Source: Candidatus Iainarchaeum sp.
GTDB lineage: Archaea; Iainarchaeota; Iainarchaeia; Iainarchaeales; VGJJ01
DNA length: 64,000 bases
NCBI GenBank assembly: GCA_016699555.1
Contig: CP064981.1
Location: 554,558-618,557 of the forward strand
Direction: 5' to 3'
Part shown: positions 13,280-59,653 of the stretch, piece after piece
How positions within the stretch are numbered: the first letter of the stretch is position 1
Layout: every line of letters starts with the position of its first letter
Program-made: the position numbers and the translations under genes
Notes under the pieces: model-generated
The model's database searches: none
What the model saw: only the letters and a program-made list of their open reading frames with translations
What the model was told of the DNA's origin: nothing

Positions 13280-13280
13280 C

Positions 13281-14852: not shown

Positions 14853-14896
14853 TCGCATAACGGATGGAGCGAGTGCTCCATTCCATTTTTTTTTAG

Positions 14897-26565: not shown

Positions 26566-26602
26566 TAATACTTAAATGCCCGCAAATGGTTGGAATAGGC
26601 AT

Positions 26603-43454: not shown

Positions 43455-44033
43455 ATGCAAAGTGTTTTGGTGATGTTCATGCGGGTTTCACAAATAGCTT
43501 TTCTATTCACAGCGGCCGTTTTGTTTTCTTCAATGGCGTTTGCATACAGTCATAGTAGTATGGAATATTATTTAGCGGAGGGATTCAATGAAAAGGGGGA
43601 ACTGCAGCCTTACTATCAATCCAATATTGCGGTTGCGAACGCACAATTGCAACAAGCGCCCGAATTCATTCGAGGAATTTTATTGAATGAGCGCATTCAA
43701 GGAAAAATCCTCATGGAAAGCGGAAAAACAGAACTAATTGGGATTGAGTTATCCAAAGAAGGGATTCAGCACGTCTTTAGAGGGGAAATGGATAACCCTA
43801 CTCTCCAAATTACGGGAAATGAAGCGGCCGTAGTTGAAATACTCAACGCGGATGCGCCCGTGGATGCCGCCGTAAAGGCCATCAATGCCGGGAGCATCAC
43901 CTATGGGGGTGTTTCTGCAATGGATGAAGTGAAAGCAGAATCCAACTTCGCCATAACAACGAAGCTCTTCTTGGTGAATATTGCTTCTTTCATGAGTGGG
44001 TTCTTAGAGAAAGTATATAGTACGCTTTCCTAA
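43455..44033 (+). CDS. hypothetical secreted protein
   Basis: N-terminal signal-like helix IAFLFTAAVLFSSMAFA. Confidence 0.4.
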   Translation: MQSVLVMFMRVSQIAFLFTAAVLFSSMAFAYSHSSMEYYLAEGFNEKGELQPYYQSNIAVANAQLQQAPEFIRGILLNERIQGKILMESGKTELIGIELSKEGIQHVFRGEMDNPTLQITGNEAAVVEILNADAPVDAAVKAINAGSITYGGVSAMDEVKAESNFAITTKLFLVNIASFMSGFLEKVYSTLS

Positions 44034-44923
44034 TGCGTGGTGGTGGCGAAAGCTACCCATCCCTGCATGCGGAAAGGAGCAATCACTTGCGATGCCACTT
44101 TCTCATCCTCACAAACCGCCACTACCGTGGGCCCTGCGCCCGCGAGCATGGCCTTGCGGATGCCTGGCATGTAATTCAAGCGCGCAATTAACTCAAATAC
44201 GGGCTCATATTCTTTCAACGTGAGATTCTCGAATACATTTCCCATTTTCTCAACAACTTTTTTGGGATCATTCGATTCTAATGCATGCTGCATGGCTTTG
44301 ATCGAATAGTGCTCCGATACATTTGCTACATTAAAGTTTCCGTAAATCCATTTTGTTTTGGCTTCGGGCACTTTTACGGGCGGAACGATGAATGCAAGAT
44401 GCAGCGTGGGGCATTTTTCTTTCAATGGAGAAATGATTTCCCCTCTTCCACGAGCGATGCACGTCCCTCCATAAATGAAAAAGGGCACGTCGCTGCCAAT
44501 GTGTCCCGCCATTTCGGCGAGTTTTTCATTGGAGAGATGGAGTTCCCACAATTGATTCAATCCCTTCAACACGGTTGCCGCATTGCTGCTCCCGCCGCCC
44601 AATCCTCCAGCGGAAGGGATGTGCTTCTCGATGAATATGCGCACACCCTCTAAGGGCTTGCTTTGTTTTTGGGCTTCGTGTTGCATCAGTTCAACCGCTT
44701 TCCAGCAGGTGTTTGTGTGATCGCGTGGCACAGTCGGATCGGTGCATTCGATTTGGATTTGGTTCGTGTGGGGGAGGGTTTCGATGGTGATGTTATCATG
44801 GATGTTCAATTCCTGCATCACGAATTCGACTTCATGAAACCCATCATCGCGCTTGCGCAAGAGATCCAAGACTAGATTGAGCTTTGCGGGGGAATGGAGG
44901 GTCAGTGTGGGCATGGAAATCAT
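44030..44923 (-). CDS. ispE: 4-diphosphocytidyl-2-C-methyl-D-erythritol kinase (MEP pathway)
   Basis: HSPAKLNLVLDLLRKRDDGFHEVEF (IspE N-terminus) and GHMP-kinase loop IPSAGGLGGGSSNAA. Confidence 0.8.
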   Translation of the reverse strand: MISMPTLTLHSPAKLNLVLDLLRKRDDGFHEVEFVMQELNIHDNITIETLPHTNQIQIECTDPTVPRDHTNTCWKAVELMQHEAQKQSKPLEGVRIFIEKHIPSAGGLGGGSSNAATVLKGLNQLWELHLSNEKLAEMAGHIGSDVPFFIYGGTCIARGRGEIISPLKEKCPTLHLAFIVPPVKVPEAKTKWIYGNFNVANVSEHYSIKAMQHALESNDPKKVVEKMGNVFENLTLKEYEPVFELIARLNYMPGIRKAMLAGAGPTVVAVCEDEKVASQVIAPFRMQGWVAFATTTH

Positions 44924-45313
44924 TCAAGTCGATCGTGTATTCCAATATTCATTCAAATAGGTGATTTTCTTACCCTTCATCTTGAGAACCATTATTCCAT
45001 ACATCAAATCATGGCGCCATTTTTTCTCGCTTCGTTTGTAATGATCGTTTTCACACTTCCATTCGGCAAAACCTGTTTTTCCATTTTTTGAAACCCAGTA
45101 GTTTCCAAGACTAAATTTAATGTTTTTTGTATTCATCACAACGGTGCGTCGCCAGAACTTTTTCATAGCATTATGGCCGTTAATTGGTTTTCGCAATGGA
45201 CTTTCCTGATAAGACCCGCGAGGAACAAAGCATTGTATCAATATTTCAGGATCTTGTTGTTCCCATGCCTTGCCATATAGTTGCATGACTTGCCTGATTT
45301 GCTTTCGATTCAT
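44924..45313 (-). CDS. NTF2/SnoaL-like fold protein (hypothetical)
   Basis: 129 aa; YGKAWEQQDPEILIQCF...GHNAMKKFW pattern typical of SnoaL-like domains. Confidence 0.4.
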   Translation of the reverse strand: MNRKQIRQVMQLYGKAWEQQDPEILIQCFVPRGSYQESPLRKPINGHNAMKKFWRRTVVMNTKNIKFSLGNYWVSKNGKTGFAEWKCENDHYKRSEKKWRHDLMYGIMVLKMKGKKITYLNEYWNTRST

Positions 45314-45349
45314 AATAGGTGTGGCGCGTCAGAAAATAAATATATACGC

Positions 45350-46363
45350 CTAATGCACCACATAGGCTGGGCGCACAATCTCGCTTTCGGCTTTGTTGTG
45401 GTCGCGGTCGTAGCGGGCGATCCATTGCACGACGTCTTCGATATCCTCATCCGGAGTAGAAGCGCCGGCGCCGATTCCCACATACTTGGAATTGGCGAAC
45501 CATTCGGGTTTCAATTCGGCTTGGGATTCAACCCAATGCGTGGTAGTGTATTTGGCGCACAGCTCGGCTTGGCGTTTCGTATTTCCGCTATTCTTTCCGC
45601 CGATGACAATCATCGTGTCCACTTGCATGGCCAATCCCACGGCGCCGGGCTGCATCTCGTGCATGGCGTTGCAGATGGTATTGAACACGCGCACTTCTCT
45701 GGCTTTGCCCATCAACGCATCCACGATGGCTTGGACATGATCGTTGCTCTGCGTGGTCTGCGAAACGACGCCGAGTTTGGGGACGGTGGGGTAATGCAAC
45801 TTTTCCACGACGCCTTCATCGGTCTTCTCTTTCATCAGTTCGTCGTTGGTGTAATATTGGGTTTTCTTCTGGAACAAGCCTTTTGCCTCGTCCAATGTCT
45901 CCACGACAATCGCATTCGGGGCATAGGACTTAATTCCTTCCACTTCGGGGTGGCCGTGTTCGCCGATGATGACGACTTGATAGCGTTCATCGAACAACTG
46001 CTTGGCTTGCTTGTGGACCATCGTGACAAAGGGGCAGGTCGTGTCGACGATCTTGAAGTTCTTTTCCTTGGCCTTCTGCATGGCCTGGACCGTCACGCCG
46101 TGCGCGCGCATCAAAACAGTCGATCCTTCGGGGATTTCTTCCATGGAATTCAAGTGAGTGAATTTGGAGATCTTGCTGGCGGCATAGGGGTTGTCTTCCA
46201 CGAGCTTTCCGCCGTGTTCGATGATCTTCTCTACGACGCGCTGGTTGTGGACAGGCATTCCATAGAGGTAAGCGGATCCCTTGTCCAAGGTCTCATGGGA
46301 AAGCTTCACGCTGCGCTTAACTCCGAAGCAGAATCCAGCGGCACGGGCGATTTCGATCTTCAT
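45350..46363 (-). CDS. ispH: 4-hydroxy-3-methylbut-2-enyl diphosphate reductase (MEP pathway)
   Basis: MKIEIARAAGFCFGVKRSV... (LytB N-terminal Cys motif) and two more conserved Cys regions (TTCPFV; FNTICNA). Start at MKIE preferred over the upstream in-frame extension. Confidence 0.85.
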   Translation of the reverse strand: MKIEIARAAGFCFGVKRSVKLSHETLDKGSAYLYGMPVHNQRVVEKIIEHGGKLVEDNPYAASKISKFTHLNSMEEIPEGSTVLMRAHGVTVQAMQKAKEKNFKIVDTTCPFVTMVHKQAKQLFDERYQVVIIGEHGHPEVEGIKSYAPNAIVVETLDEAKGLFQKKTQYYTNDELMKEKTDEGVVEKLHYPTVPKLGVVSQTTQSNDHVQAIVDALMGKAREVRVFNTICNAMHEMQPGAVGLAMQVDTMIVIGGKNSGNTKRQAELCAKYTTTHWVESQAELKPEWFANSKYVGIGAGASTPDEDIEDVVQWIARYDRDHNKAESEIVRPAYVVH

Positions 46364-46530
46364 TGAAAAACAACTCCTTGTCGTTGCGTAATAACTCAAA
46401 ATGGCGAGCACGCAGATAAAAACCCAACCCAAAAGTTTGACGGAAAGCGAATTAAAAAACGACAAAGGACGAATTGGGGGTGGATTCTGCCCGGAAACGG
46501 AATTAAAAGCAGCAATTCGGTCGGATTGGT

Positions 46531-47781
46531 ATGCCTGTGCAGAAAATGGACGTATTTGATGTCATCGTTTCGGGTGCCGGCCCCGCTGGCGCAACCACGG
46601 CGTTATTCCTCGCACGCGCGGGAAAGAAAGTCCTTCTCTTGGATAAGGAAAAATTCCCGCGCGACAAGATCTGCGCGGACAACAAGACATGGAAGTGCTT
46701 GGACATCGTGAAAGAACTAGGGCTATGGAAGCAATTCCAAAAGCTCCCCAAAGCGGAAATCTATGGGGTGTTGGTTGCCTCACCCAATGGAAGCGAGATG
46801 TACACCCCACTTCATGAAAAAGACATCGCCGAGCGGGGACACTGGTATAATGTCAAGCGCATCCATTTCGATAACTTGCTCGCGCAAGCCGCCAAGAAAG
46901 AAAAAAATATCACATTCAAGGAAAAATGCGCGGTTGTCAAACCCATTTATGCGGTGCATTCCAAAACACACATCAGTGGGGTGACCTATCACGATGCAAA
47001 AGGGAAAACGCACGACGCATGGGCACGCGTCGTCGTGGGAGCGGATGGATCGCAGTCTCCTATCGCAAAAGCGGTGGGTCATTCCCCTGTGGTGAAAGGG
47101 CGCTATGCCACGAACACGCGCGCCTATTTCGAGAACGTAAAAGGCCCCATGGATCGGTGCGAACTCTATTATCTCAAGGGCATTTGTCCGGGTTATTTTT
47201 GGATTTTCCCGGTGGACAAGAAGACTTGCAACGTGGGGATCGGTATGCGCCCGGAGGATTTCGAGAGGCAAAAGAAGTCCTTGGAACAAATCTTGCGGGA
47301 AACGATTGCGTTGCCGCAATTCAAGGGGCGTTTCAAGAAAGCCAAGCAAGTTACTGCATTCAAGGAATGGGGACTAAGCGTGTTGGGGAAACGCCGTCCC
47401 TGCGCGGGAAATGGATGGGTGCTCGTGGGAGATGCCGGGACGTTCGCGATGACATTCTCCGGAGAAGGAGTTGGTCCCTCGATGCGCACGGGAAAGATCG
47501 CCGCGCAAGGGATCGTGCGCGCGCTGAACGAAAATGATGTGTCCGCGCGCAATCTGAAAAAACACTATGAGGATGCGCTTTGGAAAATTTTGAATCCGGA
47601 AGTCAAGGGATTCCGCTGGCTCGAATTCTTGCTACTGAATGAGCGCCTGTTCGATTTCGTCATCGCAAAGTCAGCGAAAAACAAAGAGCTCATCGAGATC
47701 TCTTCGCGGATGCAGCATGATTACACGCTCTCCAAGAAGCTCGTGCATCCCAAGACCGCGCTGAAGATGCTACTGAGTTAA
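46531..47781 (+). CDS. geranylgeranyl reductase family FAD-dependent oxidoreductase (archaeal DGGGP reductase-like)
   Basis: FAD motif DVIVSGAGPAGATTALFLARAG...LLLDKE; GD(A)AG block VLVGDAGTF. Confidence 0.8.
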   Translation: MPVQKMDVFDVIVSGAGPAGATTALFLARAGKKVLLLDKEKFPRDKICADNKTWKCLDIVKELGLWKQFQKLPKAEIYGVLVASPNGSEMYTPLHEKDIAERGHWYNVKRIHFDNLLAQAAKKEKNITFKEKCAVVKPIYAVHSKTHISGVTYHDAKGKTHDAWARVVVGADGSQSPIAKAVGHSPVVKGRYATNTRAYFENVKGPMDRCELYYLKGICPGYFWIFPVDKKTCNVGIGMRPEDFERQKKSLEQILRETIALPQFKGRFKKAKQVTAFKEWGLSVLGKRRPCAGNGWVLVGDAGTFAMTFSGEGVGPSMRTGKIAAQGIVRALNENDVSARNLKKHYEDALWKILNPEVKGFRWLEFLLLNERLFDFVIAKSAKNKELIEISSRMQHDYTLSKKLVHPKTALKMLLS

Positions 47782-47811
47782 GGCTAAATAGTTGAAAATA
47801 ATTCTCATTGC

Positions 47812-48930
47812 ATGCCTAAGGCCAAGCCCGCAGGAACTCCTGGGAGAAGACCTAATTCTCGTAGGCCCGGCCTTATTTTTCCTCTCGATCGCGCTAAATG
47901 GTATCGAAGATTAGAAGTGCGTGCTGCACGCTATAAGCGACGCATAACTAAACATGAAATCAAATTTAGGGATTTGGATAGAGTAACTCAAAACGAGATT
48001 CTTGCTTTTTTAGATAAAGAGTCGCTATCTCATCACGTGACTCCTTTTTCCGCGACAATTTCTGCAGGGCTGCCTATTGCAGTAGCAAATGGTTCTGAAA
48101 AGAGTGTATTGCCAATTGCCGCGCTCAGCTTGCTCAACCTGGCAGCATCATCCGGTGCGGCAAGCACTAACAATGAACTGCTTCGTCGTGTGCGCATTCG
48201 TATTCAGCATTCGAATAATAAAAAAATCAAACACTATCTAACCGATAGCAAATATTTTTTTATCGATAAAAATGGAAATGTTATTTTTACCGATTCGAAC
48301 CCATTCCTGGCGCTACGTAAGCGTGTACGCGCCAATGAATCGGATCAACGCCCGTCGCGGGGAATGAGAGCTTTCGATAGAATGGGTGATATTTATTTCC
48401 GCGTGGCTTGGCCCTACTTATGGAGTCAAATCCAACTACCCTTTTTTCGTTATCGTGCACTTCGAAAAGCAGCGGATATTCAAAAAGGGATGACTGTCGT
48501 GGAAGTAGCCAGCGGGGCTATCCCCTATCATTCACTGTTTCGTAAAGCCGTTGGAAAAGAAGGAAAACTAATCGTGGGAGATGTCAATCCACGCGTTACA
48601 AAGGATTCGCGCCGTATTATGAGAGGAATCCAATTCGTTGAAAGGATGGTGCGAGGGAAAAAACCCAGCGAAAAGGCTGAACCTCATTACTTGACATTCA
48701 GCACCAAAAAGTTGCCCTTTCCCGACAATAGCGTGGATCGCGTGGTGGGATCATACGTGTATGAGGTTGATGTGCGGGAATTAGCGCGTGTACTCAAAAA
48801 AGGTGGGAAATTCGTTTTAGTGGAGGGAGGCGGTTGTCGCTATCATGAGCTGGACGCCATGATGAAGCGTGGAATCATACATCAAGCTCATGCCAACGGA
48901 ATTACTACTCTCACCAAACTAACTAATTAA
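47812..48930 (+). CDS. hypothetical protein with C-terminal class-I SAM methyltransferase domain; strongly AT3-rich atypical codon usage
   Basis: VVEVASG (motif I)...LPFPDNSVDRVVGSY...LKKGGKFVLVE. Basic N-terminus. Codons dominated by att/ttt/gat/aaa/cgt, unlike flanking GGR and dxr. Confidence 0.55.
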   Translation: MPKAKPAGTPGRRPNSRRPGLIFPLDRAKWYRRLEVRAARYKRRITKHEIKFRDLDRVTQNEILAFLDKESLSHHVTPFSATISAGLPIAVANGSEKSVLPIAALSLLNLAASSGAASTNNELLRRVRIRIQHSNNKKIKHYLTDSKYFFIDKNGNVIFTDSNPFLALRKRVRANESDQRPSRGMRAFDRMGDIYFRVAWPYLWSQIQLPFFRYRALRKAADIQKGMTVVEVASGAIPYHSLFRKAVGKEGKLIVGDVNPRVTKDSRRIMRGIQFVERMVRGKKPSEKAEPHYLTFSTKKLPFPDNSVDRVVGSYVYEVDVRELARVLKKGGKFVLVEGGGCRYHELDAMMKRGIIHQAHANGITTLTKLTN

Positions 48931-48987
48931 GTCAATTACCGGTGGGTTGTGGAAAGGCATTTAACTTCATTTCAATTGGTGGTGCAT

Positions 48988-50157
48988 ATGCCCACTAAAA
49001 TCCCCCATCAAAAAATAGGAATCCTCGGCAGCACGGGGAGCATCGGCACGCAGACCCTGAATGTGGTGGATCAGCACACGGATTTATTTTCGGTGAAAGT
49101 CCTTTCGGCGAATGGAAGCATCGATTTGTTGAGCGAGCAGATCAAAAAATACAAACCCGAAGCCGTTTGCTTAATCGATGAAACAAAAGCAGATGTCCTG
49201 CGCCAAAAAATGAAAGGGAATATGCACGTGCTCGCGGGATACGCGGGATTGGACGAGGCGGCGCGCTGGGAAAGCGTGGAGACGCTTGTGACTGCTGTTG
49301 TAGGAAATGTGGGATTGAAACCCACCATCGAAGCCATCCGTGCGGGAAAGAAGATTGCGCTGGCGAATAAGGAAACCCTCGTGAGCGGGGGTGCCGTGGT
49401 GATGCGCGAGGTGAAGAAGCACCAAACGCATCTGACGCCCATCGACTCGGAGCACTCGGCGATATTCCAATGCTTGAATGGGGAAGATGTGAAGGAAGTG
49501 GAGAAGATCATCCTCACCTGCTCCGGCGGACCATTCCGCGGAAGGACAAAGGCGCAGCTCAAGGGCGTCACCAAAGAACAGGCGCTCAACCATCCCACGT
49601 GGAAGATGGGGGGAAAGATTACGATCGATTCCGCAACGCTCATGAACAAGGGATTCGAGGTCAATGAGGCGATGTGGTTGTATGATGTTCCGGCGGAGCA
49701 GATCGAAGTGGTCGTGCATCCCCAGAGCATCATCCACTCGGCGGTGCAGTTCGTGGACCAGAGCATTATGGCACAGGTCGGGACGCATGATATGCGCTTG
49801 CCCATCCAGTATGCGCTGACCTATCCCCGTCGCATTCCGCTGGATATCCCCAAGTTCGATTTCGCCAAGGCCAGGCAGTTCACCTTCGAGAGCCCTGACA
49901 TGAACACGTTCGAGTGCTTGCAGATGGGATTCGAAGCCGCGAAGCAGAAAGGGACTGTTTGTTGCGTGTTGAATGCTTCGAATGACACGGCCGTAGAGGA
50001 GTTCCTCCAAGGAAAAATAGAGTTCCTGGATATCCAGCATGCCATTCGCAGGGTCATGGATCAACACAAGAACATCAAGCACCCCGAGCTGCAGGATGTG
50101 TTGGATGCCGATGCCTGGGCACGAAAGGAAACATTAAAAGTCCTGGATTCGCGATAA
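48988..50157 (+). CDS. dxr: 1-deoxy-D-xylulose 5-phosphate reductoisomerase (MEP pathway)
   Basis: KIGILGSTGSIGTQTL (NADPH site), LANKE, DSEHSAIFQ, ITIDSATLMNKG blocks. Confidence 0.9.
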   Translation: MPTKIPHQKIGILGSTGSIGTQTLNVVDQHTDLFSVKVLSANGSIDLLSEQIKKYKPEAVCLIDETKADVLRQKMKGNMHVLAGYAGLDEAARWESVETLVTAVVGNVGLKPTIEAIRAGKKIALANKETLVSGGAVVMREVKKHQTHLTPIDSEHSAIFQCLNGEDVKEVEKIILTCSGGPFRGRTKAQLKGVTKEQALNHPTWKMGGKITIDSATLMNKGFEVNEAMWLYDVPAEQIEVVVHPQSIIHSAVQFVDQSIMAQVGTHDMRLPIQYALTYPRRIPLDIPKFDFAKARQFTFESPDMNTFECLQMGFEAAKQKGTVCCVLNASNDTAVEEFLQGKIEFLDIQHAIRRVMDQHKNIKHPELQDVLDADAWARKETLKVLDSR

Positions 50158-50161
50158 GAGC

Positions 50162-50485
50162 ATGGGAAAGAATAGGCGTGGCTTCAAGCTGGAAAGGAAA
50201 ACGTACGGGGGAATCCCTCCTGCGCCGCATGTCCATCCGAGTCAGAAACCGCCGTGGTATCGTGAATTGGAGGGCCGCAGGCACCTCATCGAGCTGGCGT
50301 TTGCCGCCGAGCGTCGCTGGGACCAAAAGACGATCCAGGCCAAGACGAACCGCATGTTGGCCGAGCTCCTGCGTCAATCTGCCAAGGGCCAAGTCAATGT
50401 CAAAACGCTCACCTACTTGCAGGATCTCATCCAATTCGGACAGGATATGGTGGATCACGCCGAGCGCCAAAAGGGGAAGCGTTAA
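50162..50485 (+). CDS. small hypothetical protein between dxr and ispD
   Basis: 107-aa ORF starting 5 nt after the dxr stop; no recognised domain. Confidence 0.35.
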   Translation: MGKNRRGFKLERKTYGGIPPAPHVHPSQKPPWYRELEGRRHLIELAFAAERRWDQKTIQAKTNRMLAELLRQSAKGQVNVKTLTYLQDLIQFGQDMVDHAERQKGKR

Positions 50486-50513
50486 TTAAATCGTTGGGAA
50501 TAACTGGATAATC

Positions 50514-51227
50514 ATGCATGTCCACGCAATCCTCGGTGCAGGCGGTAGCGGCACGCGCATGCGCAATCCCATAAATAAGTCTTTCATGCTATTGCGCGGG
50601 AAACCCATCCTCGCTTATTCTTTACAGCTCTTCCAGGAAATGCCGGAGATCCATGATGTGACGATCGTGATCAACAAGGACTGGCAACCCCAACTCATGG
50701 AGGTCATCAATCGCTATCGCATCACGAAAGTGAAAGAGATCGTGGAAGGCGGAAAAGAAAGGCAGGATTCCATGCGCAATGCGGTGGAGGCTATTGCGCG
50801 TCATGCGCCGGCGAATGATGATCTCATGCTGATCCACAATGCCGCAAATCCCCTCGTCACCAAAGAAATCATCCGCGAGTGCATCCGCGCAGCGCAGTTG
50901 CATCGTGCGGCCGTCGCGGGATATCGGGTGAAGGACACGATCAAGCGCGTGCATGATGATGGGAAGATCATCGAAACGCTCAACCGCAACGAACTATGGG
51001 GGATGCAAACCCCTCAATGCGTGGAATTCGAGCTCTACTATCAGGCGCACCAAAAGGCCAAGAAAGAGGGCTTCATGGGAACGGATGATGTGCAACTGGT
51101 CGAGCGCCTAGGGGTGAAGGCGCAAGTGGTGGATTGCGGCTATGACAATATCAAAATCACCACGCCCGAGGACATCATGCACGCCGAACGCATCTTGGAA
51201 AGAAGGGAGTCGTCGGATGCCCCGTAA
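50514..51227 (+). CDS. ispD: 2-C-methyl-D-erythritol 4-phosphate cytidylyltransferase (MEP pathway)
   Basis: ILGAGGSGTRMRNPINKSFMLLRGKPIL (IspD glycine-rich loop), 237 aa. Confidence 0.9.
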   Translation: MHVHAILGAGGSGTRMRNPINKSFMLLRGKPILAYSLQLFQEMPEIHDVTIVINKDWQPQLMEVINRYRITKVKEIVEGGKERQDSMRNAVEAIARHAPANDDLMLIHNAANPLVTKEIIRECIRAAQLHRAAVAGYRVKDTIKRVHDDGKIIETLNRNELWGMQTPQCVEFELYYQAHQKAKKEGFMGTDDVQLVERLGVKAQVVDCGYDNIKITTPEDIMHAERILERRESSDAP

Positions 51228-51780
51228 GAAGAAACGCAAAGCAATGCATTCGCATTCCACTTCGCATGAGGAACCCATCGATTGGATCGATGTGCATGGG
51301 AAAAGAATCCTCACGCTCAACAAACAAATGGTCCACCTGTTTGGATTGAAGCACTATGCGGTGCATGTTTTTGTGATAAATGCCAAAGGGGAATTGGTCT
51401 TGCAGCGTCGCCGCGACGATCGTTTCTTGCAGCCCGGGAGCTGGGACACTTCGGTGGGAGGACACGTCACGAGCGGGGAATCATTGCTCGCGAGCGCGCG
51501 GAGAGAAACCAAGGAGGAATTGCGCATCACCTCTCCTTTGCACGCGTTGGGGCAGTTGGACGTGATCGACAAGCAAAAAAATTATCATAACGACGAGCGC
51601 GTGGCCTATTATTGGTGTCGCACCACGCAAATACCTTACTATCAACGCTCCGAAATCGCGGGGTTGCAGGCGATTCCGCTTGGAAAAGTGAATGCGTTCA
51701 TCCGTTCGCATCAGTGCTCGCCCATGCTCGTTGCGGGTTGGAAGAAATTTGGGAAACGCTTTATGGAGAGGATGCTTTAA
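51217..51780 (+). CDS. Nudix hydrolase resembling type-1 IPP isomerase but with Gly in place of the IDI-1 catalytic Cys
   Basis: HYAVHVFVINAKGELVLQRRRDDRFLQPGSWDTSVGGHVTSGESLLASARRETKEELRI parallels the IDI-1 segment (...FPGxWTNSxCGHP...RRxxEELGI); here TSVGGH. Start MPRKKKRK overlaps the ispD stop. Confidence 0.65.
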   Translation: MPRKKKRKAMHSHSTSHEEPIDWIDVHGKRILTLNKQMVHLFGLKHYAVHVFVINAKGELVLQRRRDDRFLQPGSWDTSVGGHVTSGESLLASARRETKEELRITSPLHALGQLDVIDKQKNYHNDERVAYYWCRTTQIPYYQRSEIAGLQAIPLGKVNAFIRSHQCSPMLVAGWKKFGKRFMERML

Positions 51781-52295
51781 TGGGAAAAATCATTCGTGGA
51801 AAATTTGGAAATGGAAAAAAATCGCCTGTCAAAAAGATTGCCTCATCAAAAAGAGAGACTCCTGTACTGCGGTTTGACTTTAGATTCAATGCATTTTTAC
51901 GTGATCGAGCGGCACGCACTCACTTGTGGACGCATCGTGTGGAAAAATATGGATTACGGGCTGACACTGGTTTTCACGCGCGTTTGCTCTATGAATTAGA
52001 GCCGAAAATGATTGATGATGCCGTGGGGGCACTCCAAAGTTTGCCTCCTCGTTTGTTCAGATGGGAAAAACTTTCTGAGGATCAGCGGTTTGCGTGTGTC
52101 GTGGGGGCGAACGTGATTCATTCGGTTTCAATACCGGATTTTGTTCGGCGATTGAATAACTACCAGCGGGGCGTGATGATGATTATTGATGCCATACGCA
52201 AGGATGGGGAATTGGCCGTGTTGCGAAATACGCGTTTATGCCAGCGCGCTGAGCGTATCATGCGTAATGCTGCTGGGAGTGATGTAAATGTATAG
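51780..52295 (+). CDS. hypothetical protein (171 aa), compositionally atypical, translationally coupled between the Nudix gene and ispF
   Basis: ATG overlaps the Nudix stop (TAATG) and its own stop overlaps the ispF ATG. cgt/ttt/gat-rich codons. No recognised domain. Confidence 0.45.
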   Translation: MGKIIRGKFGNGKKSPVKKIASSKRETPVLRFDFRFNAFLRDRAARTHLWTHRVEKYGLRADTGFHARLLYELEPKMIDDAVGALQSLPPRLFRWEKLSEDQRFACVVGANVIHSVSIPDFVRRLNNYQRGVMMIIDAIRKDGELAVLRNTRLCQRAERIMRNAAGSDVNV

Positions 52296-52776
52296 GATCG
52301 GATTCGGCGTGGACTCGCATCGCTTGCTCGCTCCCGGCGTGCAGCCGGAGAAGAAACTCATGCTGGGAGGGGTGCATATTCCTGACCACGCAGGCGTTGA
52401 CTCGCACTCGGATGGGGATCTGATTTTGCATGCGCTCGTGAATGCGCTTTCTTCTGCGATTGGAGAGAAGAGTATCGGGCAGTTCTTTCCGGATAGCGAT
52501 CCCAAATGGAACGGTGTCGCTTCTTCCAAGATGGTCGAGCATGTGTGGGAGTTGGTGCGTGAGAAAGGCTATTGTGTGGGAAACGTGGTTTTCTCGCTCG
52601 AGTGCAAGACGCCAAAAATTTCCCCCCATGAAAGCGCAATCAAGCAATCCATTGCGGCTTTGTTGGATATTCCGCTGGATGCGGTTGCGGTCCACGCCAC
52701 CACTGGGGAAAAGCTCGCTGCGTTTGGGAAGGGGGAGGGCATCTACTGCCAAGCCACCATTCTGCTACATAAATAA
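52288..52776 (+). CDS. ispF: 2-C-methyl-D-erythritol 2,4-cyclodiphosphate synthase (MEP pathway)
   Basis: MYRIGFGVDSHRL...GHSDGDLILHALVNAL (IspF Zn-binding D.H...H). Confidence 0.9.
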   Translation: MYRIGFGVDSHRLLAPGVQPEKKLMLGGVHIPDHAGVDSHSDGDLILHALVNALSSAIGEKSIGQFFPDSDPKWNGVASSKMVEHVWELVREKGYCVGNVVFSLECKTPKISPHESAIKQSIAALLDIPLDAVAVHATTGEKLAAFGKGEGIYCQATILLHK

Positions 52777-52963
52777 GTCATTATTTGCCCTCCGTCCCAG
52801 ATATTCTTTAATACTACAATCGTCGAACCCCTTGGATAAACGGCCACTATTACGTCAATCTGTAATTTTTAGATTGGCAAATAACGTATTGTTTTATAAC
52901 GCCCAGGAACCAAAAATAACGTCTCTAACGGCCTTACCTACGCTTTTGGGCTGTATATGAGGG

Positions 52964-54832
52964 GTGAACCATCCTATGACTTCCACCATGTCTGTCAGCA
53001 AGCCAAATGCCAATGGAAATGGCCATGCGAACAAGATTACGCTCAAAGACATCAATAGCCCCAAGGACCTCCGCGCGTGCAGCGTTGAAGAGCTCACGTC
53101 CATCGCAGAGGAAGTCCGCCAACTCCTGATTACGACGTGTGCGGCCAATGGTGGCCACATTGGAGCCAATCTGGGTGTTGTGGAACTGACCATGGCGATC
53201 CACTATGTCTTTAACACTCCCAAGGATAAAGTCATCTTCGATACCTCTCACCAAGCGTACACGCACAAGATCATCACCGGCCGACGCGAGCAATTCCCGA
53301 CGCTGTGCAAATACCCCGGCGGACTCTCTCGCTTCATCGTGCGCGGAGAAAACGAATACGATCTCTTTTCTGCAGGGCATGCTTCAACGGGATTGAGCGC
53401 TGCCATGGGATTCGCCGAAGCCGCGAAACACAAGGAAGCCGATTACCAAACCGTTTGTGTGGTTGGAGACGGCGCATTAACCGGTGGAATGGCCTATGAG
53501 GCGCTCAACAACATGGGCTACAACCAAACCGACATCAACATCATCCTCAACGACAACAAGATGGGGATCTCCCACAACGTCGGGGCGATGTTCGAATACC
53601 TCAAACGCTTATCCGAAGTATCGACCGACGACCGCGCGCGCCGTGCGATCGGGACCATCTTCGAGAAATTGGGCTTCAAGTATTACGGCCCCGTGAAAGG
53701 ACATGATTTCAATGAGCTCATCCACCACTTGGAAGAGATGAAACACATCAAGGGCCCCAAGATCCTGCACGTGCTCACGGACAAGGGATTGGGCGTGGAC
53801 TACATGGAGAACGACAAGGCCACGTGGCACGAACACGCGGCATTCGATATCCCCACGGGAATCGCAAAGGCCAAATTGGATCCCACCAAGCCCGTGCACC
53901 CGAGCATCGAAAGCATCGCCACGTCGGCGTTGATCAAGCTCGCGGAGAAGGATAAGACGATCGTGGGATTGACCGCTGCGATGGCCGCCGGAACGGGCAT
54001 GGTAAAATTCGGGGAAAAGTTCCCGGATCGATTCTATGACGTGGGTATTGCCGAAGAGCACGCCATCACCTTCTCTGCCGGACTCGCCGCAGAAGGGATG
54101 AAGCCCGTGGCGAACATTTACTCTCCCTTCATGCAGCGCGCATTCGACCAGATCATGCACGATGTGGCGAGCATGCATTTACCCGTGCGCATGCTGTTGC
54201 CTAAAGCAGCCATCACGGGAGACGGATGGACGCAAGGCGGAATCCTGGACTTGAGTTATTTGCGCATCATCCCGAATGTCGTTGTCGCTGCGCCCATGAA
54301 CGAGAATGAACTCTATCACATGGTCAAGATGGCCGTCGACTACGATAAGGGCCCCATCGCCGTGCGCTTCCCCAAAGGGACCGGCAGCGGGATGGCCATC
54401 GATGCGGAATTCAAGACCATTCCCATCGGAAAAGCCGAAGTCTTGAAGGAAGGAAAAGATATTACCTTGCTGGCCATCGGCTGGCCCGTGCAAGATGCCG
54501 TGAAAGCGGCGGCGGAACTCGAGAAGAAAGGGATCTCCGCAACCGTCATCAACGCGCGCTTCGCCAAGCCATTGGATGAGGAGACGATCCTGAAGCATGT
54601 GAAGCAAACAGGAAAGGTCATCACCATCGAAGAAAATACATTGATCGGCGGGTTCGGCTCGGCTGTTCTCGAATGCCTCGAACGCCACGGCATCAAGAAT
54701 GTGGATGTGAAGCGCTTAGGTGCAGCGGATGGGTACATTCCATTCGACACGCCGGCGAATATCAAGAAATCCTTCGGTATGGCGATGGATGATATCGTGA
54801 AGCAGGCCGAGAAGATGACGGGAAAGCACTAG
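52964..54832 (+). CDS. dxs: 1-deoxy-D-xylulose 5-phosphate synthase (MEP pathway)
   Basis: GGHIGANLGVVELTMAIHYVFNTPKDKVIFDTSHQAYTHKIITGRRE (TPP site) and CVVGDGALTGGMAYEALNN; 622 aa. Confidence 0.9.
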   Translation: MNHPMTSTMSVSKPNANGNGHANKITLKDINSPKDLRACSVEELTSIAEEVRQLLITTCAANGGHIGANLGVVELTMAIHYVFNTPKDKVIFDTSHQAYTHKIITGRREQFPTLCKYPGGLSRFIVRGENEYDLFSAGHASTGLSAAMGFAEAAKHKEADYQTVCVVGDGALTGGMAYEALNNMGYNQTDINIILNDNKMGISHNVGAMFEYLKRLSEVSTDDRARRAIGTIFEKLGFKYYGPVKGHDFNELIHHLEEMKHIKGPKILHVLTDKGLGVDYMENDKATWHEHAAFDIPTGIAKAKLDPTKPVHPSIESIATSALIKLAEKDKTIVGLTAAMAAGTGMVKFGEKFPDRFYDVGIAEEHAITFSAGLAAEGMKPVANIYSPFMQRAFDQIMHDVASMHLPVRMLLPKAAITGDGWTQGGILDLSYLRIIPNVVVAAPMNENELYHMVKMAVDYDKGPIAVRFPKGTGSGMAIDAEFKTIPIGKAEVLKEGKDITLLAIGWPVQDAVKAAAELEKKGISATVINARFAKPLDEETILKHVKQTGKVITIEENTLIGGFGSAVLECLERHGIKNVDVKRLGAADGYIPFDTPANIKKSFGMAMDDIVKQAEKMTGKH

Positions 54833-54907
54833 CGCTTCCTGTCTCTCTCAAAATTTTACTTAGAAATAAAATCAGTTCCCTCAACGCGTGTACGCGGTGA
54901 TTCCCTC

Positions 54908-56161
54908 ATGCAAAAACTCGAAACCTACAACGGATTTGTCAAGCGCAAGAGCGTTGCGGTGATGGTGGGGAAGATCGGTATTGGAGGGAGCAATCCCGTG
55001 CGCGTGCAATCGATGACCAATACCGACACGGCCGATGTGGAAGGGACGGTAAAACAGATCAAAGAGCTCGCCGATGCGGGTTCTGAACTCGTGCGCATGA
55101 CGATCGAAAAAGACGCCATGGCCCAAGCCGTTCCAGAGATCCACCGCCGCCTGCATGCGGAGGGGTATGAGGATGTGGCGCTAATCGGTGACTTTCATTA
55201 CAATGGACATATTCTCCTGCAGAAATATCCCGAGCTCGCGGAGGCGCTGGATAAGTACCGCATCAATCCCGGGAATGTGGGCTTCGGAGAGAAGCACGAT
55301 GAGAACTTCGACACCTTCATCAAGCTCGCCGTAAAATACAACAAGCCCGTGCGCATTGGGGTGAATGGCGGGAGTTTGGATCAAAATCTCCTCAAGAAAC
55401 TCATCGACGAAGACAACGCGCGTGCTCCCCACGAACAGCGCGGGGCGAATATGGTTTTCTTGGATGCGATGATCGAATCCGCGATCCAGTCCACGCAGCG
55501 CGCACTCTCATTGGGCATGCGCAAGGACCAAATCATCATTTCCACGAAGATGAGTGGGGTGCAGGAGATGGTGTATTGTTATTCCCAGCTCGCCAAGCGC
55601 ACCGAGCAGCCTCTCCATTTGGGTCTGACGGAAGCCGGGCTCGGGGACAAAGGGATCATCGGCAGCACGGCCGCGCTTTCATTGTTGTTGAACCAGGGGA
55701 TCGGCGACACGATCCGTGTTTCTCTTACGCCCGAACCGGGTGCTCCACGCGCGCGCGAAGTACGCATTGCCCAGCAGGTGTTGCAGTCATTGGGCTTGCG
55801 CTACTTTTTGCCGCAGGTCACGAGCTGTCCGGGTTGCGGGAGGACGACTTCGACGACGTTCCAGGAACTCGCAAAGGAAGTGACGGAATACTTGCACCAC
55901 CAAATGCCGGTGTGGAAAAAAGAAGGCCACGCGGGCGTGGAAAGCATGCACGTGGCAGTGATGGGGTGCATCGTGAACGGCCCCGGAGAGGCCAAGGATG
56001 CGAATATCGGAATCTCTCTCCCCGGAAGCGGAGAAAACTCAGCCGCTCCTGTGTTCGAGGACGGAAAGCTCGTGAAGACGCTGCAGGGGCCCCAAATGAA
56101 AGAAGATTTCAAGCAGATGGTCCTTGCGTATGTGCAGCGCAAATATCCCAAAGCGCACTAA
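54908..56161 (+). CDS. ispG: 4-hydroxy-3-methylbut-2-enyl diphosphate synthase (MEP pathway)
   Basis: [40 protein letters not shown] (GcpE N-terminus) and C-terminal Cys cluster SCPGCGRT...GCIVNGPGE. Confidence 0.9.
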
Positions 56162-57781: not shown

Positions 57782-58563
57782 ATGCGTCCCAAATATGTCA
57801 TCGGAAACTGGAAAATGTTCACTTCTATTTCAGAAGGGAGAAAGCTCGCCGAGGAAGTGCATAAGTTCGCACAATTACATGTGGCCGGGAGCAATGTGCG
57901 TGTGGCCGTCTGTCCGCCTTTCACGCATCTCACGGAAGTCGCGCACGTGCTCAAGGAGTCCTTGGTGAAATTAGGCGCACAGGATTGTCATTTCGAGAAT
58001 GAAGGCGCGCACACGGGGACGTTTCTCCTGTCATGCTCGCGGGAGCGGGAGCGCAGTATTGTATGGTGGGCCACTCCGAAAGGCGCGCGAACCACCACGA
58101 AGACAACCGCATCGTGAATGCGAAGCTGCTCGCGGCGATGCGTAATAATCTCTTGCCTATCTTGTGTTTTGGCGAGACGGCCGCGGAAAAAAGCGCGGGA
58201 AAAACACACGAGGTCATTACGCGCGCTCTCAAGGAATGTCTTGGGGGGATTTCCCGCGAAACGATGGGGAAGATTATTCTTGCCTATGAGCCGGTGTGGG
58301 CGATCTCCACCAACAAGGACAACAAAGGCGCTCCTGCCACGCCGCAAGACGCCAATGCGGTGCACCAATTCATCCGCAACACATTGAAGGAGATGTTCGG
58401 CGCGGAAGTGGCGAATCAGACGACCATCCTCTATGGCGGAAGCGTCAAACCCGAGAATGCAAAGGCATTCTTTTCCCAGAGCGACATCGATGGCGCACTG
58501 GTGGGAGGGGCTTCGCTGAAGAAGGATAGCTTTGCCGCGATCATCGAAGCGGCCAAGCAGTAG
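57782..58563 (+). CDS. tpiA: triosephosphate isomerase, frame broken by a 1-nt deletion in a G4 run at about 58015-58018
   Basis: ORF 57782-58117 has VIGNWKMF...VAVCPPFTHL...EGAHTG; ORF 58033-58563 in another frame has MVGHSERR...ILCFGET...AYEPVWAISTN...YGGSVK...GGASLK. Adding one G (acgggggac) gives a continuous [29 protein letters not shown]. Confidence 0.8.
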
Positions 58564-58597
58564 CTTTAAATCGTGGGCAAAGTTACTATTTGATTCG

Positions 58598-59653
58598 ATG
58601 CCCACGAAAGATCTCACTTCCCAACGCAAGATAGAGCACGTGAATATTGTGTTGCAAAAACCCGTGCAGTTTACGCAAAAAACGACGGGCTTCGAAGAGA
58701 TGGAAGTGGAATACCTGACGCTTCCCGAGATTGATGCGGGAAAGATCGACACGAGAACGACATTCCTCAAGCACGCATTTTCATTCCCTTTCATGGTGAG
58801 CAGCATGACGGGTGGGCATGAGAAAACCACTATCATCAACAGGCAAATCGCCCAAGCCTGCGAGGAAGTTGGAATCGGGATGGGCCTCGGTAGCACGCGC
58901 GCGGCCATCGAGAACAAGAAAACGATGGCGTCATTCGATGTGCGCAAGTATGCGCCGAACATTTTCTTGGCGTGCAATATCGGTGTTTCCAATCTGAAAA
59001 AATACTCGAGCAAGCAATTGCAAAAGTTGGTGGATGATTTGCAGTGCGATGCGATGATCGTCCATTCCAACTCGGCGCAAGAAATTGTACAGCACGAAGG
59101 GACGCCGCAATTCTCGGATTGCTTGAAAGAGATTGGCCGTGTCGCGCGCGAGCTCGAGGTACCGGTGTATGTGAAGGAAGTGGGGAATGGGATTTCTCCC
59201 ACGAATGTCAAACAATTGGACAAGCTGCCCATTGCCGCGATTGATGTGGCCGGGGCCGGTGGGACGAGCTGGACGGCCATTGAAAGCAAGCGCGGAACGA
59301 TGGACAACAAAGAATTAGGTGAAAAATTCTGGAATGTGGGTATTCCGACCGTTCCTGCGGTGATTGGGGCCAAAAGATACTCGAAGAAACCCATTATCGC
59401 AAGCGGCGGCGTTCGTTCAGGTCAGGATGTGCTCAAGGCGATGGTGTTGGGTGCTAGCATGAGTGCGGCTGCAATTCCCATTATTTTGGCGCAAGACAAT
59501 GGTGGGGCGCAAAAAATCGTTTCTCATCTTGAAAAACTCCAACGCGAATTCCGCGCGGGAATGTTTCTCGCGGGAGCGAAGAATGTGAGTGCGTTGCACG
59601 GGAAAAAATATTATCTATTCGGAAAGACAAAAGAATGGGTGGAACAGCTATGA
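58598..59653 (+). CDS. fni: isopentenyl-diphosphate delta-isomerase type 2 (FMN-dependent)
   Basis: RKIEHVNIVL, PFMVSSMTGG, TIM-barrel FMN-binding C-terminus IASGGVRSGQDVLKAMVLGAS. Start MPTKDL preferred over the upstream extension that overlaps tpiA. Confidence 0.85.
   Translation: MPTKDLTSQRKIEHVNIVLQKPVQFTQKTTGFEEMEVEYLTLPEIDAGKIDTRTTFLKHAFSFPFMVSSMTGGHEKTTIINRQIAQACEEVGIGMGLGSTRAAIENKKTMASFDVRKYAPNIFLACNIGVSNLKKYSSKQLQKLVDDLQCDAMIVHSNSAQEIVQHEGTPQFSDCLKEIGRVARELEVPVYVKEVGNGISPTNVKQLDKLPIAAIDVAGAGGTSWTAIESKRGTMDNKELGEKFWNVGIPTVPAVIGAKRYSKKPIIASGGVRSGQDVLKAMVLGASMSAAAIPIILAQDNGGAQKIVSHLEKLQREFRAGMFLAGAKNVSALHGKKYYLFGKTKEWVEQL

Follow-up and report, generated by a model that had tools for sequence, protein, structure and literature searches.

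A complete bacterial-type MEP gene cluster, probably functional and long resident, in an Iainarchaeota archaeon

Does a complete set of bacterial-type MEP/DOXP isoprenoid genes on a contig labelled archaeal belong to the archaeon's chromosome, and could the pathway work there? We addressed this question in a 64,000-nt stretch of DNA assigned to Candidatus Iainarchaeum sp. (contig CP064981.1; hereafter the window). The observed gene identities, intact catalytic residues, archaeal host and conserved synteny, together with codon usage that matches the host, lead us to consider it probable (about 0.85) from sequence comparison that the locus is a functional bacterial-type MEP gene cluster long established in the chromosome of an Iainarchaeota (Diapherotrites, DPANN) archaeon. 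The sequence-only reading of the window had treated an MEP pathway in an archaeon as a surprise. The cluster is real, but the phenomenon has already been published and is less surprising than was assumed; the same reading's mention of MEP genes in DPANN metagenome-assembled genomes (MAGs) was correct (PMC8204110, PMC6107057, PMC12892359). Co-located MEP genes, read as laterally acquired, were described in 52 Woesearchaeota (Castelle et al. 2021, PMC8204110), following an earlier report on Woesearchaeota MEP that is cited there (Castelle & Banfield 2018). A complete pathway, attributed to HGT, was then reported in three Micrarchaeota orders, Norongarragalinales, Zaosheniarchaeales and Micrarchaeales; according to that paper, MEP had previously been detected in Woesearchaeales only (PMC12892359, 2025). 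The Iainarchaeota cluster is an additional lineage among these DPANN clusters.

Genes were identified by full-length matches above curated NCBIfam equivalog cutoffs, with Pfam domains alongside. Profile searches of the window ORFs confirmed all seven MEP enzymes at the positions (44030-56161, a span of 12.1 kb) and on the strands previously proposed, and every full-length protein exceeded its equivalog cutoff (Table 1). IspE contains Pfam GHMP_kinases_N and GHMP_kinases_C, and Dxr contains three Dxr Pfam domains. The true ispH start is probably ATG 46363, which yields 337 aa, the length of the clade's homologues; AAGGAG precedes this codon. The NCBI version of Dxs is 614 aa and starts at ATG 52988. 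IspH retains the Fe-S cysteine columns Cys46, Cys144 and Cys265, and IspG retains Cys307, Cys310 and Cys354. Near-invariant columns are retained at 92-98% in Dxs, IspG and IspH (100 of 109 in Dxs and 144 of 147 in IspG).

Table 1. Features of the MEP cluster and adjacent genes in the window. Scores are in bits, with the cutoff in parentheses.
Feature	Coordinates	Strand	Evidence or remark
ispE, CDP-ME kinase, 297 aa	44030..44923	-	TIGR00154 242.7 (138.7)
SnoaL-like small protein, 129 aa	44924..45313	-	weak Pfam SnoaL_2/SnoaL_4, below gathering score
ispH, HMBPP reductase, longest ORF 371 aa	45350..46465	-	TIGR00216 244.1 (187.85)
Geranylgeranyl-reductase (GGR)-family FAD protein, 416 aa	46531..47781	+	TIGR02032 GG-red-SF 188.1 (158.8)
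UbiE/COQ5-like methyltransferase, 372 aa	47812..48930	+	Pfam Ubie_methyltran, Methyltransf_11, residues 219-339
dxr, DXP reductoisomerase, 402 aa	48949..50157	+	NF009114 507.7 (461); TIGR00243 476.6 (315.7)
Small basic putative ORF, 107 aa	50162..50485	+	4 nt past dxr, 28 nt ahead of ispD
ispD, MEP cytidylyltransferase, 237 aa	50514..51227	+	TIGR00453 215.4 (181.3); Pfam IspD 199.8
Nudix hydrolase, YfcD/DR0079/IDI-like branch, about 178 aa	51244..51780	+	Pfam NUDIX 57.4 (21.1); longest ORF start 51142
ORF, about 172 aa from ATG 51780	51780..52295	+	GC3 0.43; longest ORF start 51612
ispF, MEcPP synthase, 162 aa	52288..52776	+	TIGR00151 185.7 (116.45); Pfam YgbB 178.9
dxs, DXP synthase, 622-aa ORF	52964..54832	+	TIGR00204 678.3 (465.95)
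ispG, HMBPP synthase, long two-domain type, 417 aa	54908..56161	+	NF001540 441 (345)
tpiA, bacterial-type triosephosphate isomerase	57782..58563	+	split by 1-nt deletion near 58014-58017
idi2, type 2 (FMN) IPP isomerase, likely start ATG 58598	58532..59653	+	TIGR02151 355.7 (281.3), residues 31-360

The cluster shares its seven families, catalytic residues and predicted chemistry with the canonical bacterial pathway of E. coli (dxs, dxr, ispDF, ispE, ispG, ispH). The E. coli genes are scattered, whereas the Iainarchaeal genes are clustered in an archaeal chromosome and have archaeal-like codon usage. Two proteins also differ in length: IspH is 337 aa here compared with about 280-290 aa in the nearest bacterial homologues, and IspG belongs to the longer two-domain type of 402-440 aa.

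Two divergent units, separated by a 167-bp spacer, make up the cluster. The minus-strand unit consists of ispH, the SnoaL-like gene and ispE, and the plus-strand unit runs from the GGR-family gene to dxr, ispD, the Nudix gene, the 172-aa ORF and ispF, followed by dxs and ispG. The tight spacing described earlier holds, with gaps of -8 to +30 nt from the GGR-family gene through ispF. The cluster also contains four further ORFs that had gone unmentioned: the SnoaL-like gene, the UbiE-like methyltransferase gene and the 107-aa and 172-aa ORFs. The SnoaL-like gene (GC 0.38, GC3 0.39, RSCU r 0.30 relative to host genes) is present in 1 of 14 related loci (L008) and is a lineage-specific insertion. 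The methyltransferase, whose Pfam matches lie outside its N-terminal half, has a GC3 of 0.40 and an RSCU r of 0.38; it has no counterpart in any of the 14 related loci and is a recent, low-GC, lineage-specific insertion. Profile searches returned no family match for either the 107-aa or the 172-aa ORF. The latter shares 1 nt with the end of the Nudix gene and 8 nt with the start of ispF, and its only counterpart among the 14 related loci is in L001 (62% identity).

The neighbouring GGR-family, Nudix, idi2 and tpiA genes noted from sequence alone are all present in or beside the cluster. The GGR-family protein passes the superfamily model only. As an archaeal DGGGPL reductase equivalog it was rejected (NF041080, 104.1 against a cutoff of 580; NF041160, 88.3 against 780; NF041385, 66.5 against 700), and it is far below the other equivalogs (MenJ, 101 against 700; BchP/ChlP, 110 against 343). 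Its best PDB matches are halogenases and the Thermoplasma DGGGPL reductase 3oz2. A GGR-family gene is found upstream of dxr in L001, L003, L006 and L012. An idi2 gene likewise lies 3' of ispG in a second archaeal lineage (L015).

The Nudix gene had been described as IDI-1-like, a description that does not hold in the catalytic sense: the Nudix box is intact, but the catalytic Cys is replaced by Gly or Ser, and the protein scores below the IDI-1 cutoffs (NF002995, 52.8 against 127; TIGR02150, 39.5 against 105.8). It is also below the YfcD cutoff (55.1 against 152). At the position of Cys67 (E. coli IDI numbering), Gly is found in the window protein and Gly or Ser in 11 of 11 orthologues, in an alignment to E. 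coli IDI with which a PDB alignment agrees on the Cys67 site. None of the best 150 representative homologues has Cys at this site. In the alignment with E. coli IDI, His25, His32, His69 and Glu116 all have counterparts in the protein, which has the canonical RE-x2-EE where IDI-1 has RR-x2-YE. Its Nudix box, GHVTSGESLLASARRETKEELRI, departs from G-x5-E-x7-R-E-U-x-E-E-x-G-U solely by a change of the penultimate G to R. The best solved relatives are E. coli YfcD (2fkb) and Deinococcus DR0079 (1q27), and 11 related loci also have the gene in the interval from ispD to ispF.

The claim for tpiA stands as to its presence, but its reading frame is broken in the window sequence by 1 nt. A G run reads GGGG in the window and GGGGG in L001, the closest relative. 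The C-terminal ORF matches Pfam TIM over profile positions 78-245, and the repaired 260-aa TpiA exceeds the TIGR00419 cutoff (174.4 against 130.6), with just 40.9 against 132 for the archaeal-type PRK04302. The argS gene, which is essential, is likewise split in the window. Because argS is split too, an assembly (homopolymer) error is a plausible cause of the tpiA frameshift.

En-bloc transfer had been offered as an origin for the cluster. Descent from one donor is an oversimplification: Dxs does back a common archaeal clade, but IspG, IspH and IspF show gene-by-gene swaps. The trees were built by neighbour joining only from best-hit samples; deep relationships and donor identity are weak, and the Dxs and IspG sample was without a verified Woesearchaeal sequence. 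Monophyly with other archaeal copies, a matter that the sequence-only reading had left to phylogenies, was recovered for Dxs, in which the Iainarchaeal clade (100% bootstrap support) joined other archaeal copies (lineage unlabelled) at 93%. For IspG it was not recovered, with 0 of 100 bootstraps joining it to other archaeal IspG. The identity of IspG to its proteobacterial/Deinococcus-type counterparts is 60-63%, compared with 42% for the IspG of another archaeal MEP cluster; outside the clade, it is most closely related to bacterial proteins 402-440 aa long. In clusters that share one gene order, the IspH proteins belong to unrelated classes, as do the IspF proteins. In Micrarchaeota, the history of dxs has been set apart from that of the other MEP genes (PMC12892359).

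The core order is identical in L019, the Dxs of which is 63% identical. L015 and L016 share the arrangement ispH(-) divergent from dxr-ispD-ispF-x-dxs-ispE-x-ispG-idi2, flanked by histone, PolX and DTD2 genes. We conclude that the order ispE(-) ispH(-) divergent from dxr ispD ispF dxs ispG was inherited by a sizeable Iainarchaeal clade from its ancestor and that variants of it occur in at least one more archaeal lineage. Within this fixed order, ispG, ispH and ispF were replaced in place by distant homologues, and low-GC accessory genes were inserted. The Woesearchaeal cluster, known here by its description in PMC8204110, is also a complete, co-located bacterial-type MEP set in a DPANN genome, although of a different phylum. 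Its reported neighbours are a UbiA prenyltransferase, a bacterial G3P dehydrogenase and fatty-acid genes (PMC8204110), none of which was found among the ORFs scanned from 36.6 to 63 kb; the Iainarchaeal cluster instead has the GGR-family gene, the Cys-less IDI-like Nudix gene, a bacterial-type tpiA and idi2. The Micrarchaeota paper documents complete MEP in a sister phylum and does not describe Iainarchaeota (PMC12892359). In the one Micrarchaeia contig examined (L018), proximity is limited to ispG (407 aa) and ispH and does not extend to all seven genes.

Host taxonomy was based on the NCBI label of a 100%-identical Dxs (P0001, 'MAG Candidatus Iainarchaeum archaeon', encoded on a 1,048,949-bp contig) and on the labels of related MAGs. 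The flanking leuS, earlier named as a telling marker, is of archaeal and not bacterial type (TIGR00395, 727.8 against a cutoff of 648.5, compared with 177 bits for leuS_bact). RecJ exceeds the RecJ_archaeal cutoff (NF053576, 516.5 against 360), and the flanks also encode SMC, a FlaI-like ATPase, a T2SSF/FlaJ-like protein and class III signal-peptide pilins. RecJ (43351) is upstream of ispE, placing archaeal genes on the left side of the cluster. Codon usage was host-like, as had been proposed: the pooled RSCU-type frequencies of the MEP genes correlate with those of 14 flanking genes at r = 0.97, compared with 0.70 for the sigma-like gene, and MEP GC3 values (0.57-0.71) resemble those of host genes. 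This codon usage argues for the long residence suggested earlier, as does the gene order kept across 14 species-level relatives, with a shared archaeal left flank wherever the contig extends far enough upstream.

Since MEP genes are typically bacterial, a bacterial segment might have been misjoined to an archaeal contig during assembly or binning, and mislabelling does occur: at least one 'Pacearchaeota'-labelled Dxs (P0084) sits on an 81-kb contig with the bacterial markers AsmA, HU and Pth. However, the cluster is found in 14 species-representative archaeal MAGs that were assembled independently in different studies. The RecJ-u192-ispE junction is present in eight of these (L001, L002, L004, L007-L011), with SMC beyond RecJ in five (L001, L004, L009-L011); the remaining six loci stop short of RecJ, and thus every contig that reaches upstream has it. 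The window sequence is therefore not chimeric, and a misjoin, which also has the archaeal left flank, the 1.05-Mb source contig and the shared codon usage against it, is vanishingly improbable. A decaying relic that has lost its function would fit the frameshifted tpiA and the three atypical-GC genes inserted in the cluster, yet none of the seven MEP ORFs is truncated or below its equivalog cutoff, and catalytic cysteines and near-invariant residues are retained. Identities of 58-96% among orthologues from many species indicate purifying selection; Dxr is 73-84% identical in the 14 related MAGs, and ispE orthologues (58-74% identical) occupy the equivalent position in nine related loci. With tpiA intact in L001 and the split argS pointing to assembly homopolymer errors, we regard decay as extremely unlikely. 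Model bacteria, E. coli among them, have these seven genes scattered, and their full co-localization and tight spacing here could also reflect recent en-bloc gain of a mobile or 'selfish' operon from one bacterial donor. No mobile-element signature was found for the 'selfish operon' proposal: searches around the cluster detected no integrase, transposase, adjacent tRNA (the nearest is at 32.4 kb) or flanking repeats other than short, chance-level ones. Recent gain is very unlikely considering also the host-like codon usage, the same chromosomal site in relatives whose Dxr has diverged to the extent given above, the distance of bacterial homologues (at most 49% identity for Dxs and 42% for IspH) and the incongruent nearest relatives among genes.

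A further alternative concerns what the pathway is for. MEP could operate alongside a retained mevalonate pathway and serve mainly non-membrane isoprenoids (quinones, polyprenyl carriers, carotenoids) instead of bulk ether lipids, a reading that we consider unlikely. Mevalonate genes have been reported in other Iainarchaeota (PMC10936187, PMC6107057) and in some Diapherotrites (PMC8407392), but the pathway was detected in just 39.7% of Diapherotrites genomes (PMC8407392). The GGR-family protein fits MenJ and BchP/ChlP about as poorly as it fits archaeal lipid reductases, and the scan of window ORFs turned up no gene for lipid assembly. The UbiE/MenG-like methyltransferase gene adjoining the GGR-family gene would also suit this alternative; however, the methyltransferase lies outside the conserved system because it is a recent low-GC insertion missing from all relatives.

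On our preferred reading of a functional, long-resident cluster, established MEP enzymology suggests how the products would act together. TpiA would provide glyceraldehyde-3-phosphate to Dxs, which would join it with pyruvate to form DXP. Dxr, IspD, IspE and IspF would convert DXP to MEcPP, from which the [4Fe-4S] enzymes IspG and IspH would produce IPP and DMAPP, and IDI2 would balance the two. The scan of window ORFs of at least 150 aa yielded no GGPP synthase, GGGPS, DGGGPS or G1P dehydrogenase, and the lipid destination is therefore putative; loss of G1P dehydrogenase has been proposed for the common ancestor of Iainarchaeota and Micrarchaeota (PMC12892359). The IPP and DMAPP made by this cluster would feed archaeal isoprenoid lipids, the chains of which the adjacent GGR-family enzyme may saturate, and the MEP route would replace, rather than supplement, the mevalonate route in this archaeon.

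All seven MEP enzymes named by the sequence-only reading were recovered by listing ORFs in the window and running profile searches on them, and each exceeded its NCBIfam equivalog cutoff over the full length. The ispH start was placed by the length shared by all close homologues (337 aa). We then aligned Dxs, IspG, and IspH each with 79 to 102 homologues from outside the clade. At columns conserved to at least 97%, the window proteins keep 100 of 109 (Dxs), 144 of 147 (IspG), and 49 of 52 (IspH) residues, and the three cluster-ligand cysteines are retained in IspG, as are three in IspH. NCBI records already annotate these genes correctly.

Positions of the features discussed. L001 to L014 are loci of related archaeal MAGs carrying the MEP cluster; L019 is a locus with a Dxs 63% identical to that of the window.
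Feature	Sequence	Position	Strand	Remark
sigma-70-family gene	window	3853-5199		regions 2-4
argS, split	window	5212-6929	-	two overlapping ORFs
argS, first part	window	5718-6929	-	N-terminal and catalytic part, argS positions 20-369 of 569
argS, second part	window	5212-5847	-	DALR anticodon-binding domain
type IV pilus/archaellum-like locus	window	10377-15367
FlaJ/T2SSF-like candidate	window	12152-13279		only weak UpsF match
1,058-aa protein	window	26576-29752		weak HerA/VirB4-like ATPase core
ispE	window	44030-44923	-	profile match
SnoaL-like ORF	window	44924-45313	-
ispH	window	45350-46465	-	likely start ATG 46363, giving 337 aa
geranylgeranyl-reductase-family flavoprotein (GGR)	window	46531-47781	+
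UbiE-like methyltransferase	window	47812-48930	+
dxr	window	48949-50157	+
107-aa ORF	window	50162-50485	+	between dxr and ispD
ispD	window	50514-51227	+
Nudix gene	window	51244-51780	+
ORF without family assignment	window	51780-52295	+
ispF	window	52288-52776	+
dxs	window	52964-54832	+
ispG	window	54908-56161	+
secreted-looking protein	window	56191-57561	-	downstream of cluster
tpiA	window	57782-58563		bacterial-type TIM; downstream of cluster
idi2	window	58532/58598-59653		TIGR02151 355.7 > 281.3; downstream of cluster
tpiA G run	L001	18727-18731		GGGGG
divergent ispH	L019	4508-5449
YjbQ and RuBisCO-family pair	L008	13032-14754		inside MEP cluster
YjbQ and RuBisCO-family pair	L011	12467-14194		inside MEP cluster
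~230-aa membrane-anchored protein	L004	9201-9893
~230-aa membrane-anchored protein	L005	892-1587
~230-aa membrane-anchored protein	L006	2082-2720
~230-aa membrane-anchored protein	L011	6680-7420
~230-aa membrane-anchored protein	L013	1596-2282

A bacterial segment mis-joined to an archaeal contig, the alternative raised when the cluster was first noticed, does not fit the surrounding genes. The window LeuRS is archaeal-type (727.8 bits with TIGR00395 versus 177 with the bacterial model), and an archaeal RecJ/GAN-family nuclease (516.5 > 360) and SMC lie immediately upstream of the MEP cluster. An NCBI protein labelled "MAG: Candidatus Iainarchaeum archaeon" and encoded by a contig of 1,048,949 bp matches the window Dxs at 100% identity. 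A Dxr search of a set with a single genome for each GTDB species yielded 14 loci at 73 to 84% identity, all in archaeal MAGs and from several studies. By tblastn, these loci share the order SMC, u235, RecJ, u192 (u235 and u192 being genes of the RecJ/SMC flank), ispE and ispH on the minus strand, GGR where present, dxr, ispD, Nudix, ispF, dxs, ispG and, further on, tpiA and idi2. Eight loci reach upstream and contain RecJ, and SMC is seen in five of these. Because the junction between archaeal genes and MEP genes is reproduced in independent assemblies, a chimera is in practice excluded.

Dxs groups with other archaeal copies. About 36 database clusters match the window Dxs at 60 to 95% identity, labelled Diapherotrites, Iainarchaeum, Micrarchaeota, or "archaeon", followed by four clusters at 51 to 54% and one further protein (P0076) at 49%. 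Bacterial Dxs proteins reach at most 49% in the database search. One protein from the 51 to 54% group, P0038, is encoded on a 270-kb contig that also carries genes for an archaeal histone, PolX, DTD2, and a KaiC-like ATPase; the MEP genes there run ispH on the minus strand, then dxr-ispD-ispF-x-dxs-ispE-x-ispG-idi2. In neighbour-joining trees of best-hit samples, the iainarchaeal Dxs clade received 100% bootstrap support, and its grouping with the second archaeal group and the "archaeon" Dxs P0043 received 93%. The one patescibacterial Dxs in the sample fell near the archaeal copies. DPANN MEP enzymes have been reported to group with CPR and FCB bacteria (Hoshino & Gaucher, PMC6107057). We dropped a "Candidatus Pacearchaeota archaeon" Dxs (P0084, so labelled at NCBI) as an archaeal comparator because its contig looks bacterial. 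This 81-kb contig carries the bacterial markers AsmA, HU, and peptidyl-tRNA hydrolase and has no other MEP genes near dxs; the protein is probably bacterial or mis-binned.

IspG, IspH, and IspF do not share the relationships of Dxs. Outside its close clade (79 to 96% identity), the nearest relatives of IspG are bacterial proteins of 402 to 440 aa at 60 to 63%, labelled Deltaproteobacteria, Rickettsiales, Paraburkholderia, and Deinococcus, and it shares only 42% identity with its counterpart in the second archaeal cluster. Monophyly with other archaeal copies, which the sequence-only reading had suggested checking, is supported for Dxs in the neighbour-joining trees, whereas no bootstrap (0 of 100) joined the IspG clade to any other archaeal IspG. 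For IspH, identity to bacterial proteins does not rise above 42%, and the window and L019 copies share only 30% although the two loci have 63% identical Dxs proteins and a common core gene order. Close relatives with Dxs identities of 71 to 96% encode three classes of IspF, between which identity is only ~40%. We also noted that L019 IspH is ~31% identical to all other copies, despite Dxs identities of 59 to 82%, and that the divergent ispF classes occur in L008, L009, and L012, all with the same cluster gene order. The IspF classes and L019 IspH look like in-place replacements by distant homologues. These discordant relationships argue against the en-bloc transfer or selfish operon suggested earlier, as does the lack of an integrase, a tRNA, or meaningful flanking repeats at the cluster in the window. 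The simplest reading is an old clustered arrangement, vertically inherited, in which single genes have been displaced in place by distant homologues.

Composition likewise bears out the long residence that had been proposed from host-like codon usage. The seven MEP genes have a GC content of 0.50 to 0.56 and a GC3 of 0.57 to 0.71, comparable to 14 flanking genes (GC3 0.55 to 0.73). Pooled synonymous-codon frequencies of the two sets correlate at r = 0.97, and the order is kept in the 14 relatives. Three genes are atypical: the SnoaL-like ORF (GC3 0.39), the methyltransferase (0.40), and the ORF without family assignment (0.43). Since these are also missing from most or all of the 14 related loci by tblastn, they are recent arrivals in a cluster that is itself old. 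The methyltransferase N-terminus and the 107-aa ORF share a basic WYR(R/E)LE motif.

The Nudix gene had been described as IDI-1-like. In 11 relatives the gene keeps its place between ispD and ispF, and its product aligns with Escherichia coli IDI-1, with equivalents of His25, His32, His69, and Glu116. However, we rejected an IDI-1 identity. Every orthologue has Gly or Ser in place of the catalytic Cys67, the RR-x2-YE of IDI-1 gives way to a canonical Nudix box (RE-x2-EE), and the protein scores below the profile cutoffs of both IDI-1 and YfcD. A search of 1.84 billion representative proteins gave only two matches at E < 1e-30. The Nudix box is present in 114 of the best 150 homologues, and Cys stands at the site in none of them (GGH in 50, AGH in 37, SGH in 12). 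Judged by these residues and scores, the protein is predicted to be a hydrolase-type relative of YfcD/DR0079 and no isomerase. Our guesses at its substrates, made from gene position only, are CDP-linked MEP intermediates or IPP/DMAPP; the enzyme might act as a pathway valve by cleaving CDP-ME or CDP-MEP, or IPP/DMAPP.

The step order of the MEP route is established enzymology. The encoded pathway would begin with the condensation of GAP and pyruvate to DXP by Dxs, followed by conversion to MEP by Dxr, CDP-ME by IspD, and CDP-MEP by IspE. IspF would then form MEcPP, IspG HMBPP, and IspH both IPP and DMAPP, with IDI2 setting the IPP/DMAPP ratio. Intergenic gaps from GGR to ispF range from -8 to +30 nt, and this tight spacing suggests that these plus-strand genes are co-transcribed. 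The longer gaps before dxs (199 nt) and ispG (75 nt) would allow separate promoters, and ispH and GGR are separated by a divergent spacer of 167 nt. We infer that the MEP product may feed archaeal ether lipids; no lipid-assembly genes were found among the scanned window ORFs. The GGR-family protein passes only a superfamily model, so its substrate may be a lipid, a quinone, or another compound.

The tpiA reading frame is broken at about position 58014, where a G run is one nucleotide short (GGGG in the window versus GGGGG in L001, the closest relative), and the repaired protein passes TIGR00419. Either a homopolymer error in the assembly or recent pseudogene formation would account for the break. 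The former is likelier because argS, an essential gene, is likewise split by an apparent frameshift, which suggests errors in the assembly.

Relatives carry further genes inside the cluster. In L008 and L011, the stretch from the Nudix gene to ispF holds genes for a YjbQ/UPF0047 protein and for a 431-aa member of the RuBisCO large-chain family. The RuBisCO-family protein reaches none of the NCBIfam equivalog cutoffs and, read by eye, has Asn at what is presumably the position of the active-site Lys177. By analogy with the MTA-isoprenoid shunt of Rhodospirillum, where a RuBisCO-like protein ties methylthioadenosine salvage to DXP (PMC4958253), the pair might feed DXP from methylthio-sugar salvage. 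A membrane-anchored protein of ~230 aa recurs between ispH and dxr in five relatives (39 to 75% identity among loci), where it takes the place of GGR or sits beside it; the L004 copy, the one scanned, has no Pfam match. A broader proposal is that, in a whole clade of Iainarchaeota, a chromosomally fixed MEP cluster replaced the mevalonate route as the sole IPP source for membrane lipids and serves as a platform recruiting side branches (Nudix, RuBisCO-like/YjbQ). We consider this unlikely, at roughly one chance in seven.

Several other loci were observed in the window. Directly after ispG, a 456-aa protein has an N-terminal membrane anchor, Thr-rich linkers, and a Cys-rich C-terminus; our search found no family match, and a 62% conserved counterpart is present in L001. 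The archaeal type IV pilus or archaellum-like locus encodes a FlaI-like ATPase (671 aa), two small pilins with class III signal peptides, and one or two FlaJ/T2SSF-like membrane proteins. A sigma-70-family protein, in this archaeal genome, passes TIGR02937 (50.8 > 42.9) with best matches to SigK/SigE/RpoD, and its gene has atypical codon usage (GC3 0.49; RSCU r = 0.70 against host genes). AT skew is strongly positive around the gene for the 1,058-aa protein, whose neighbours match no family.

The lipid divide is a textbook distinction between the domains, with mevalonate-derived isoprenoid ethers in Archaea and the MEP route in most Bacteria. MEP enzymes have been reported in "a few DPANN archaea" (Hoshino & Gaucher 2018, PMC6107057), and groundwater DPANN use either the mevalonate or the MEP route (PMC5383146). 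Across a clade of 52 Woesearchaeota, the pathway is reported to be widespread, with its genes co-located (Castelle et al. 2021, PMC8204110, where Castelle & Banfield 2018 is cited on how the pathway is distributed in DPANN). Complete pathways are described in three Micrarchaeota orders by a 2025 study, according to which earlier detections were confined to Woesearchaeales (PMC12892359). For Iainarchaeota, mevalonate genes are mentioned (PMC10936187, PMC6107057), with a figure of 39.7% of Diapherotrites genomes (PMC8407392). These three papers make no mention of an iainarchaeal MEP cluster. MEP in DPANN is already published for Woesearchaeota and Micrarchaeota, and what is added here is mainly lineage breadth and detail of cluster evolution. 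This added detail is modest and consists of the conserved scaffold, the replacement of genes in place, and a Nudix hydrolase specific to the cluster. The sequence-only reading stands in its observation of the MEP genes and, in its interpretation, for the archaeal host and long residence, but not for en-bloc transfer or IDI-1.

Genomes that cross the lipid divide reveal the interchangeability of precursor supply. In Iainarchaeota, with contamination excluded, the chromosome stably carries the bacterial route and passes it on vertically, and the gene order is kept while single genes are exchanged. The 1.05-Mb contig offers a clean, nearly complete-genome example for asking whether an archaeal membrane can come from MEP-derived precursors.
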